Part shown: positions 26,872 to 33,750 of the stretch, piece after piece
Numbering within the stretch: the first letter of the stretch is position 1
Layout: every line of letters begins with the position of its first letter
Source: Patescibacteria group bacterium
Lineage (GTDB): Bacteria; Patescibacteriota; Minisyncoccia; Phycocordibacterales; SBAW01
DNA: 64,000 nt
Direction of reading: 5' to 3'
Assembly (NCBI GenBank): GCA_028866155.1
Contig: JAGWIT010000001.1
Location: forward strand, 165 to 64,164
The notes under the pieces: model-generated
What the model was told of the DNA's origin: nothing
What the model saw: the letters and a program-made list of their open reading frames with translations, nothing else
The model's database searches: none
Program-made: the position numbers and the translations under genes

Positions 26872-29800
26872 CTATCTCACCAATTCTTTGTCGCCTTCTA
26901 CCGTTTGCGGAGACACCGGTGCGTATTTTTGCACCAGTTTTTGTTTGGGAGAGCCGGGGAAGCCCGTGCCTGCGGGAATGAGCCGACCGATAATCACGTT
27001 CTCTTTGAGGCCCTCGAGATGGTCGATACTGCCGTAGACCGACGCGCGGATGAGCATGCGGGTCGTGTTTTGGAAGGATGCGGCCGAGAGGAACGATGCC
27101 CGCGAGAGCGAGACGTCGAGAATGCCCATGATGAGCGGCTCTGACTTCGCGGCCTCGCCACCATTGGCGACGACAGCCTCGTTAATCTTGGCGAGATCCG
27201 CCTCTGCCACAACATCTGCCGGAGAGAACTCTGTTCCGCCCGACTCTTTGACGCGCACGCGGCTGAACATCTGGCGGATGATGACCTCGAGGTGCTTGGT
27301 CGAGATATTGGCGCCCTGCAACTCATAAATCTTCACCACCTCGCCGATGATATACTCCTGCGCGCGCTCCTTGCCCGCGTATTTGAAAAGCTCGGAGAGG
27401 TCTGCGGAGCCGTCGGTGAGCAATTGGCCCTTCTCTATGCGCTGGCCTGGCTTCACAAGCGGCACGCGGCGCATCGGGAGCGTGTATTCGATGGTGTCTT
27501 TGTCTTTTTTGCCTTTGCCGCGGTGCTCGAGGTCGGGCGCCACGACGATGGTCTTTTCTTTGCCGTCGTCTTTAATCTCAATGACTTCGCCGGAGACCGA
27601 TGCCACAACCGCGGGATTGTGCGGCATGCGGCGTTCGAAGATCTCTTCAACGCGCGGCAAGCCTTGGGTGATGTCGCCTGCAACCGATGCCGCCCCGCCC
27701 GCATGGAAGGTGCGCATCGTGAGCTGGGTGCCCGGCTCGCCGATGGCCTGTGCCGCGACGGTGCCGACCGCCTCGCCTAAGCTCACCGGCTTCATGGTGC
27801 CAAGGTCAGCGCCATAGCAGTGCGCGCAGATGCCGCGGCCCGACTTGCAGCCTACCGGCGAGCGCACATACACCGATGGCACATTGAGCTCCTCGATGCG
27901 CTTCGCGTCGGCAACGGTGAGCAGAGTTCCCTTTTTATATTCGACTTTGCCTGCCCCGACAGAACCGTCGGGGCCGTTTCCAATCACGTCGGCGGCCAGA
28001 TAGCGGCCTTCGATGTTTTGCGCCAGGAAGGTGCCGATGCCCGACGCCGACTCGCGGCGCACGGTGAGCCCTTCTTTGGTGCCGCACTCTTCTTCGGTAA
28101 CCACAACGTCTTGCGCGACATCGAAGAGCCGGCGCGTGAGGTAGCCCGCTTTGGCGGTGTTGAGCGCCGTGTCCGAGAGACCTTTGCGCGAGCCGTGAGT
28201 GGTGATGAAGTACTCTATCGGCGAGAGTCCCTCTTTCATCGACTTGGTTATCGGGAACTCGATTGCCTCGCCGGTCGGCGATGCGATGAGGCCCTTCATG
28301 CCGGCCATTTGGGTCACCTGCGCTATTGAGCCGCGCGCGCCCGAGGTCACCATGTCGGAGACCGGGCCGTTCTTGGGCAAAGTAGCGGCCATCAATTTTT
28401 CAACTTCTGATTTTGCGGCGTGCCATATCTCGATGTTCATGCGATAGCGCTCCTCTTCCGAGAGGAGGCCGCTGCGCCAGTGCTCCATTGCTTCATCCGA
28501 CTTCACTTGTGCAGCATCGACGATAGCCTCTTTCTCTTTGGGCACGCGGATATCGTCGAGCGACCACGTGATGCCTGACTGCGTTACATAGCGGAAGCCG
28601 AAGTTCTTGATGCGGTCGAGTATCTCGGGGATCTTCTCAAGGCCGTAGCGTGCGATGAGGTTGTCGATGAGCTTGGCGAGGCTCTTTTTTTCTATCGCGT
28701 AGTTGATATACGGATAATCGCTCGGGAAGACGGTGTTAAAGAGCAAGCGCCCGACCGTTGTTTCGAAGAGCTGCCCGCCGAACTGCGCGTACTTCTCTTT
28801 TTCGGACGGGACGACCTTTATCTTCGCCTGGAAACCCACGTGGCCGTAGTCGTAGGCAAGAATTGCCGAGTTGGGGTTGGGAAACACGAGACCTTCACCT
28901 TTGGCGCCGGCGACTTCCTTGGTCATCCAATAGGAGCCGAGCAAGATGTCGAGGAGTTTTGAGGCTACGACCGGTTCGCCGTTGCCGGGCTTAAGTATGT
29001 TGCGCGTTGCGGCCATAATCTCGCGTGCTTCGGCCTGCGCCTCGGGCGAGAGCGGCACATGCACGGCCATCTGATCGCCGTCGAAGTCGGCGTTAAAGGC
29101 CGGACACACAAGCGGATGGAGCTGGATGGCGTTGCCTTCGATTAAGACCGGCTGGAACGCTTGTATGCCGAGACGGTGGAGCGTAGGCGCGCGATTCAAC
29201 AATACATATTTGTCTTTGATGACGTCTTCAAGAATGGCCCAAACCTCCGGCACTCCCTCGTCGATGAGGCGGCCGGCGCCGCGGATATTGTAGGCCAGCT
29301 CTTTCTCAAGCAGTTTGCCAATAACAAACGGGCGGAACAATTCCAAAGCCATGTGCTTGGGCAAGCCGCACTGGTTGAGACGAAGCTCGGGGCCGACCAC
29401 GATGACCGAGCGGCCCGAGTAGTCGACGCGCTTGCCGAGCAAGTTCTGGCGGAAGAGGCCGTGTTTGCCTTTGAGGTTGTCCGAGAGCGATTTGAGCGGG
29501 CGCGTGCGCGCTTGGGTCGTGGCAGAGTATGCCGCGCCGCCGTGGCGGATGCTGTTGTCAATTAAAGCATCTATCGCTTCCTGCAAGATGCGCTTCTCGT
29601 TGCGCAAGATAACATCCGGCGCGTGAATTTCGAGCAACTTCTTGAGACGGTTGTTACGGTTGATAACGCGGCGATAAAGGTCGTTGACATCCGAAGTCGC
29701 GTGGCGGCCGCCGTCGAGCGCGACCATGGGGCGCAAGCCCGGCGGGATGACCGGTATGCGCGTGAGGAACATCCACTCGGGACGCACATTGGCGCGCAGC

Positions 29801-33750: not shown

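Follow-up and report, generated by a model that had tools for sequence, protein, structure and literature searches.

An inherited in-frame fusion of rpoB and rpoC in an Adlerbacteria-like lineage of the Parcubacteria

Does a single open reading frame (ORF) that runs from the β subunit of RNA polymerase straight into β′ represent a genuine gene fusion, and how is such a gene transcribed? The question is raised by a stretch of 64,000 nucleotides (assembly GCA_028866155.1, contig JAGWIT010000001.1, positions 165 to 64,164; hereafter the window, in whose coordinates all positions are given). The source is a Patescibacteria group bacterium, an Adlerbacteria-like member of the Parcubacteria/Paceibacteria in the candidate phyla radiation (CPR). 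A preliminary description of the window had reported one 6879-nt ORF encoding a full β subunit followed in frame by β′. This was borne out by the ORF list, the translation, Pfam and NCBIfam; the strand, which had been left unstated, is the minus strand. In our study, the β-β′ fusion was found to be real and inherited and no artefact of assembly. The whole account favoured here, in which an inherited in-frame rpoB-rpoC fusion makes a single-chain polymerase core and is transcribed with a leader, is held with high confidence.

The fused gene and its junction

The ORF was found to start with ATG, and its translation of 2292 amino acids (aa) contained no internal stop. The translation holds the junction exactly as it had been quoted, with ...DVELMRAGSAVHNVRK followed by TPGAEASDFDAVRIRPASPEKILEWSHGEV. 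The Pfam matches were arranged in the order of Rpb2 domains 1, 2, 3, 45, 6 and 7 (aa 19-1047) followed by Rpb1 domains 1-5 (aa 1066-2170), each well over its cut-off. In NCBIfam, the protein passed the rpoB equivalogs NF001616 (1443 against a cut-off of 896) and TIGR02013 (1426 against 801), and also the rpoC equivalog TIGR02386 (1484 against 963.5). A chance ORF of 2292 codons at about 55% GC is ruled out because about 3 in 64 random codons are stops. All the domains and catalytic motifs of β and β′ are intact in the fused protein, whose single chain has a mass of about 250 kDa as estimated from its length.

The junction, which had been placed near 30450-30600, was located at 30556-30612, where a linker of 19 aa stands between the two subunits. 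The β chains of solved structures in PDB were found to align to '...LDVEL' (aa 1046), the E. coli β reaching 3 residues further, after 'IEL'. The solved β′ chains align from about 'DFDAV' (aa 1066), and residue 13 of E. coli β′ falls 4 residues before 'FDAV'. The length of the linker is roughly that of the summed free β and β′ tails of solved RNA polymerases; as it approximates the sum of ordinary free tails, the fusion required no added spacer.

All 13 window-clade loci in GTDB shared the pattern of '...LDVEL', 10 variable residues and RKTPGAE-x-S-DFDAVRIRPASPE. Of 82 clade proteins examined, 77 contained both anchor motifs, and the linker was 18-20 aa long in 73 of these; RKTPGAE was conserved at 70-90% across the clade proteins. 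The ratio of nonsynonymous to synonymous differences per site (pN/pS) was calculated from Nei-Gojobori counts in 13 window-clade DNA sequences. It was 0.145 for the RKTPGAE half of the linker, 0.68 for the variable first half, 0.43 for the linker as a whole and 0.07-0.10 for the flanking β and β′ codons, with pS at about 0.65-0.7 in all junction regions compared. No stop was found in the 19 junction codons of any of the 13 sequences. By these substitution patterns the junction codons are translated and partly constrained, with the RKTPGAE half under purifying selection.

A search of a 5.8-billion-protein collection listed 120 homologs, and all 120 were β-β′ fusions. At least 82 of those listed were full-length (75-89% identity) and came from NCBI, JGI, ENA and Logan assemblies; those that carried a name were designated 'Candidatus Paceibacterota' or 'Patescibacteria group'. 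The same fusion was carried by more than 80 independent 90%-identity clusters. In a scan of GTDB species genomes followed by ORF analysis, a continuous ORF crossed the junction in 14 of 80 loci, of which 13 belonged to the window clade (79-88% identity, several named Candidatus Adlerbacteria). These 13 loci (11 full-length and 2 cut by contig ends) possessed the same linker, and two further fused loci of the clade were obtained from an independent metagenome scan. The same fusion, with the same linker, was present in more than 80 independent clusters and assemblies.

A sequencing or assembly artefact would require a missed stop codon or an indel that joins two genes. Such errors do occur in metagenome-assembled genomes, and one H. 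pylori genome seems to be split through a single-base frameshift (PMC6403173). The same in-frame junction with a conserved linker of 18-20 aa, however, recurred in the more than 80 independent clusters, which four data sources had supplied, and in 15 separate genomic or metagenomic loci, and RKTPGAE shows many synonymous and few amino-acid changes. The artefact is ruled out by this recurrence in independent assemblies and retains a negligible probability; a read-level check of the junction was therefore unnecessary.

The β′ proteins of unfused sister lineages start with 'MKT...(D/N)FD', and the fused clade reads 'RKT...DFD' at that position. Residues 1047-1056 may thus be a one-time β tail, and RKTPGAE the one-time N-terminus of β′. 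In the proposed history, adjacent rpoB and rpoC would have been joined in frame in the Adlerbacteria-like lineage. The rpoB stop codon and a short spacer would have been lost and the start methionine of rpoC replaced by Arg1057, in an order of events that we infer. The free C-terminal tail of β and the N-terminal head of β′ would then have become the 19-residue tether, and the catalytic core of RNA polymerase would be made as one polypeptide of about 250 kDa.

Whether this chain persists in the mature enzyme is a separate matter. The fused precursor could be cleaved after translation into separate β and β′, giving a conventional enzyme, and the first half of the linker, being variable (pN/pS 0.68) and probably flexible, would suit such a fate. 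Inspection of the translation, on the other hand, revealed no protease site and no intein-like element in the 19-aa linker, and the conservation of RKTPGAE is explained as well by its origin as a β′ N-terminus. Zakharova and co-workers reportedly found the Helicobacter fusion as an intact polypeptide in 1998. Cleavage is considered very unlikely; the chain presumably stays uncleaved, and any benefit for assembly is equally presumptive.

Distribution, origins and known counterparts of the fusion

Separate rpoB and rpoC genes were found in 66 of the 80 GTDB loci, in Taylor-, Nomura-, Kaiser-, Zambryskii-, Lipton- and Nealsonbacteria-like genomes (52-69% identity). When loci were sampled with β′ alone as the query, the genes were fused in 3 of the 77 that could be scored. 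The fusion does not characterize the CPR or the Parcubacteria at large, most other Parcubacteria being unfused.

A neighbour-joining tree of 117 concatenated β+β′ sequences and a 100-replicate bootstrap on 26 taxa assigned the fused genes to four distinct places. In the window clade all members were fused (bootstrap 100/100). The fused protein P0089 was nested among the unfused L068 and L024 (100/100), to which it is 81-83% identical, as against 64% to the window protein. The fused L022 and P0088 formed a group in which P0088 had the unfused L070 as its sister (100/100). All members were again fused in a deep clade (53-54% identity) that contains a 'Candidatus Liptonbacteria' protein (100/100). 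The linkers of the fused groups differed in sequence and in length. An event like that of the window clade can be read directly from two of these lineages, P0089 and L022. P0089 contained '...SVQTTNLRRNK...' where the 83%-identical unfused L068 contained '...RS*FSTTTMQKKK...'; L022 has retained the old methionine of rpoC ('NKNMISNYRT'); and the linker of L141 was different again, resembling Nomurabacteria-like N-termini. Because of these tree positions and clade-specific linkers, the simplest reading of the sequences is that at least 4-5 independent fusions took place within the Parcubacteria, possibly with one reversal. Fusion would recur because a few codons separate rpoB from rpoC and because the free tails of the two subunits already come together in the enzyme.

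The opposite polarity, in which the fused state is ancestral for the Parcubacteria and the unfused genomes are secondary splits, would accommodate two observations: rpoB and rpoC were in the same frame in all 66 unfused loci of the first set, and the unfused L070 stands between the fused L022 and P0088, so that at least one re-split is possible. The first of these is a ranking artefact, because tblastn alignments run through in-frame stops. A locus search with a query spanning two adjacent genes favours in-frame loci, whereas a single-gene query removes the bias, and with the β′-only query 51 loci were out of frame and 23 in frame (31%, equal to chance). In addition, the linkers of the fused clades are unrelated and of unequal length, fused genomes are few in the unbiased sample, and the unfused state is the general one in bacteria. 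An ancestral fusion is accordingly rated as highly improbable, somewhat below cleavage of the chain, and recurrent independent fusion is preferred. Programmed stop-codon read-through or a hidden constraint on frame in the unfused relatives, where often one TAA lay between the genes, was also considered and rejected, as the 31% obtained with the unbiased query is what chance gives.

Natural fusions of this type have been described in Helicobacter and Wolinella (Zakharova et al. 1999, J Bacteriol 181:3857, as cited in PMC1557499) and in Wolbachia (PMC6403173), and a synthetic E. coli fusion of rpoB and rpoC that is functional is cited as reference 21 of bioRxiv 10.1101/2021.11.05.467461. The window protein scored 2122.7 bits against a cut-off of 5372 for the Helicobacter-type model (NF007172 / PRK09603) and 1970.6 bits against 4632 for the Wolbachia-type model (NF011417 / PRK14844). 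It is a fusion of a known kind from an independently derived lineage and a member of neither curated fused family.

As in Helicobacter and Wolinella, adjacent rpoB and rpoC are joined in frame, with β N-terminal and β′ C-terminal, a short tether and inheritance throughout a clade. Those proteins, however, are about 2890 aa long as against 2292 aa here, where the lineage-specific insertions are lacking; they belong to another phylum and arose independently, whereas the window gene lies between trmD upstream and dnaG-rpoD downstream. The Wolbachia protein is likewise a natural β-β′ fusion, in a host-dependent bacterium with a small genome, but it is about 2840 aa long and its lineage and linker are unrelated. 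In the engineered E. coli fusion, tethering of the β C-terminus to the β′ N-terminus was compatible with a functional enzyme, although that construct is artificial and silent on selective benefit. If the Helicobacter and engineered E. coli fusions are a guide, the function of the enzyme should be unaffected by the tether, which would ensure that β and β′ are synthesized 1:1 and assembled together.

The preliminary description was correct that fusions are known from Helicobacter and Wolbachia, but its term 'rare' was an understatement in view of the at least 4-5 origins in the Parcubacteria. A junction-spanning search of 1.84 billion cluster representatives in a 50%-identity library yielded at least 13 more full-length fusions, of 2150-2812 aa. 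In one of them, from the haemotropic mycoplasma Mycoplasma wenyonii (WP_014849752.1, P0153, 2648 aa), one ORF also runs through the β C-terminus and the β′ N-terminus. A single ORF was present in P0088, P0089, L022, L141 and the 53-54%-identity clade as well, with linkers of their own and branches apart from the window clade. Judged by their sequences, the Mycoplasma wenyonii fusion and the other Parcubacteria fusions are parallel events, separate from that of the window clade. No publication on a CPR β-β′ fusion was found in a literature search that was thin on subscription journals, which is weak evidence of absence; public annotations name these fused proteins merely 'subunit beta''.

Transcription of the fused gene

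The fused gene had been described as transcribed from a leaderless-type promoter. Conservation did not support this, and the conserved signal appears to be a distal σ70-type promoter followed by a structured leader. The distal promoter matched the consensus at 11 of 12 positions, carried a TG extension and was the best in a 10-kb scan. It lies about 210 nt upstream of the ATG and was aligned at the same position in most clade members.

The RNA that follows was found to be about 135-165 nt long with four elements: a GNRA-capped hairpin, the P1 hairpin, the S3 hairpin and a GC-rich stem with the U-tract CUUUUCGUGUUUUG. RNAalifold on MAFFT alignments recovered P1 only; the other hairpins, including the first, which is variable, were read by eye. 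In P1, 94% of the cells were paired, and three of the pairs showed compensatory changes (AU↔UA and CG↔UA); the terminator-like helix was 85% paired across 14 matches. The covariation score was reached by none of 500 shuffled controls. A covariance model of the leader (R1, built from 11 loci) found one clade locus outside its training set, L009 (E=6e-15). It gave no convincing match upstream of rpoB in the unfused Parcubacteria or in the deeper fused L079, the best being L053 (E=0.09). In Rfam, the whole window gave only one tRNA at the gathering threshold, with no match to the leader, and at E<=10 only chance matches (E >=0.9) were obtained over 33700-34050. The element is a candidate new rpoBC leader/attenuator or small RNA, confined to the fused clade of the window.

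The architecture of an attenuator was present, with a GC-rich hairpin and U-tract (33826-33862) between promoter and start codon, conserved and preceded by the covarying P1. In E. coli, the rplKAJL-rpoBC operon has an attenuator between rplL and rpoB (bioRxiv 10.1101/2021.11.05.467461). The terminator-like element described here likewise lies just upstream of rpoB and would permit control by attenuation; unlike the E. coli operon, the gene has a dedicated promoter, no ribosomal-protein genes upstream and a multi-hairpin leader limited to one CPR clade. The most likely start of transcription is the conserved σ70 promoter that directly follows trmD, and the transcript would then cross the clade-specific structured leader of about 210 nt, in which the terminator-like hairpin could attenuate it.

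The leaderless idea deserves to be weighed against this, since in the window no Shine-Dalgarno sequence was found before any of the 23 genes checked, and about 11 of 44 genes had a TAnnnT box (-10-like, often with TG) at -12 to -14, positions at which such boxes were enriched; dnaG and RNase R carry theirs at -14. This suggests that many mRNAs of the organism are leaderless or nearly so; nothing relevant on leaderless or Shine-Dalgarno-less initiation in the CPR was found in the literature, where thin coverage of subscription journals makes the evidence weak. If the rpoBC mRNA were leaderless and made from the proximal promoter, with its TAGTAT box at -14, the upstream element would be a separate small RNA with its own terminator (33826-33862). 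The conserved element does close with a terminator-like hairpin and U-tract about 75 nt before the ATG. The proximal box, on the other hand, lacks both a -35 and a TG extension and falls below the threshold of the promoter scan. In 11 relatives neither the box nor the last 25 nt before the ATG were conserved, the TAnnnT box being either missing or unsuitably spaced. In an AT-rich spacer, moreover, a TAnnnT that falls within a 5-nt window may well be due to chance. The leaderless reading is less probable, though it keeps a minor share of our confidence, and a leadered transcript with a possible attenuator is favoured.

Some observations weigh against the account as a whole. The TAGTAT box of the window does stand at a distance compatible with leaderless initiation. 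The S3 hairpin covaries yet aligns badly (55% paired even after realignment to the covariance model), and the minimum-free-energy fold of the leader alone is not significantly stable (z=-1.6). For the protein, AlphaFold2 on the excised junction module (aa 860-1440, 47-sequence alignment) gave a mean predicted local distance difference test score (pLDDT) of 56, with the β part below 50, and the gap spanned by the linker could not be measured.

Gene neighbourhood and meaning of the fusion

The features of the locus are listed in Table 1. The spacer between trmD and the fused gene is exactly 253 bp (33751..34003), which agrees with the preliminary description. The genes upstream on the same strand are rpsP, a KH-domain gene, an HD-domain gene and trmD (Pfam). 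The absence of rplKAJL before the gene was also confirmed: tblastn with E. coli L11, L1 and L7/L12 gave no match to rplK, rplA or rplL in the 64-kb window (rplJ was not queried separately), and the same search worked as a positive control in L073. The gene does not belong to a canonical rplKAJL-rpoBC operon. In L073, an unfused Nomurabacteria-like locus, rplL (L7/L12) was found at 16712-17077, downstream of dnaG-rpoD and not upstream of rpoB.

Table 1. Features of the fused rpoB-rpoC locus in window coordinates.
Feature	Position	Strand	Basis
Fused rpoB-rpoC gene (2292 codons + stop)	26872..33750	minus	ORF list, translation, Pfam, NCBIfam
β part, aa 1-1046, compact, ending in conserved '...GLALDVEL'	30613..33750	minus	Pfam; PDB β chains align to here
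β motif GGQRFGEME, aa 973-981	30808-30834	minus	Motif coordinates
19-aa linker MRAGSAVHNVRKTPGAEAS, aa 1047-1065	30556..30612	minus	Pfam/PDB alignment bounds, clade conservation
Arg1057 codon, inferred old rpoC start (Met→Arg)	30580..30582	minus	Alignment with unfused β′ N-termini
Peptides within or across aa 1047-1065: AGSAVHNVR, (K)TPGAEASDFDAVR			Expected from sequence
β′ part, aa 1066-2292	26875..30555	minus	Pfam; PDB β′ chains align from their residues 2-23 on
β′ N-terminal Zn-finger CxC...CxxC (CYCGK...CEKCG), aa 1120-1139	30334-30393	minus	Motif coordinates
Catalytic NADFDGD, aa 1553-1559	29074-29094	minus	Motif coordinates
Distal σ70-type promoter TTGACA-16-TGcTATACT, directly after trmD stop	33968..33995	minus	Consensus scan and alignment
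Conserved structured leader RNA, or possibly separate small RNA	33824..33962	minus	Alignments, covariance model R1
P1 hairpin	33912-33935	minus	Leader alignments
S3 hairpin	33864-33879	minus	Leader alignments
Terminator-like stem GGGGAGC-loop-GCGCCCC	33842-33862	minus	Leader alignments
U-tract CUUUUCGUGUUUUG	33826-33839	minus	Follows terminator-like stem
Leader and promoter in loci besides the window: L001-L006, L009, L029, L035, L043, L056	upstream of rpoBC		
Proximal -10-like TAGTAT box, -14..-9 from ATG	33759..33764	minus	Basis of leaderless idea
Start codons with TAnnnT (examples)	21088(+), 22700(-), 12651(+), 58960(+), 43543(-), RNase R 36167(+)		
trmD, upstream neighbour	34004..34651	minus	Pfam tRNA_m1G_MT, E=1e-43
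dnaG, downstream	24250-25968	minus	Pfam
rpoD, downstream	22929-24329	minus	Pfam

The order rpsP-KH-trmD → rpoB/rpoC → dnaG-rpoD (22929-36102, minus strand, in the window) was found by tblastn in 80 loci to be common to fused and unfused genomes. Of the 73 loci with a match to at least one neighbour of the window gene, most show this order, and trmD upstream of rpoB was conserved in fused and unfused relatives alike. The context is indeed non-canonical, as had been described, but it has no link to the fusion, since unfused Parcubacteria share it; the gene order is a class-wide synteny. The genes for the RNA polymerase core, primase and primary sigma factor are adjacent across the Parcubacteria.

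The usual companions of rpsP and trmD are rimM and rplS, and neither was seen between rpsP and trmD here. An HD-domain (HD_3/YfbR-like) gene at 34664-35299 (minus strand) lies between the KH gene and trmD and was present, among the relatives, only in L001 and L079, a distribution that makes it a local insertion within the conserved cluster. The gap between rpoBC and dnaG, about 900 bp here, is only about 80 nt in most relatives, some having other insertions of 0.5-1.8 kb. Within the gap, on the opposite strand (26105-26806, plus), lies an orphan ORF of 233 aa, for which no match in Pfam or PHROGs and no counterpart in the 80 related loci was found. The longest rpoD ORF and the 3' end of dnaG share 80 nt (24250-24329), so that rpoD probably starts further downstream than this ORF does; the 440-aa antisense ORF across rpoD (22959-24281, plus) is most likely spurious. 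Elsewhere in the window (41286-42203, minus), a 305-aa protein with an N-terminal NusB and a C-terminal NUDIX hydrolase domain was found, apparently another gene fusion involving a transcription factor.

A more far-reaching interpretation is that tethering has been repeatedly selected in the Parcubacteria, a covalent link solving an assembly problem of a minimal RNA polymerase (for example weak or missing assembly help), and that the Adlerbacteria-like promoter and multi-hairpin leader act together as a novel attenuator by which the amount of the single-chain core enzyme is autoregulated. This combination is regarded as speculative and unlikely.

The understanding of transcription is left unchanged by the fusion, and its consequences lie elsewhere. 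The two curated models of fused proteins miss these proteins, pipelines label them only 'subunit beta'', and marker-gene workflows that expect separate rpoB and rpoC may miscount in CPR genomes. The fusion and its linker provide a clean rare-genomic-change marker for the Adlerbacteria-like clade, and the compact single-chain core of 2292 aa could suit structural or synthetic work as a minimal polymerase. The clade-specific structured leader and the gene starts without Shine-Dalgarno sequences, often leaderless, are the less expected by-products. Given the at least 13 further full-length fusions, natural fusions are more widespread than the two textbook cases. A large uncultivated lineage, from a class with at least 4-5 apparent origins, is added to the few bacteria whose RNA polymerase core is tethered by nature.

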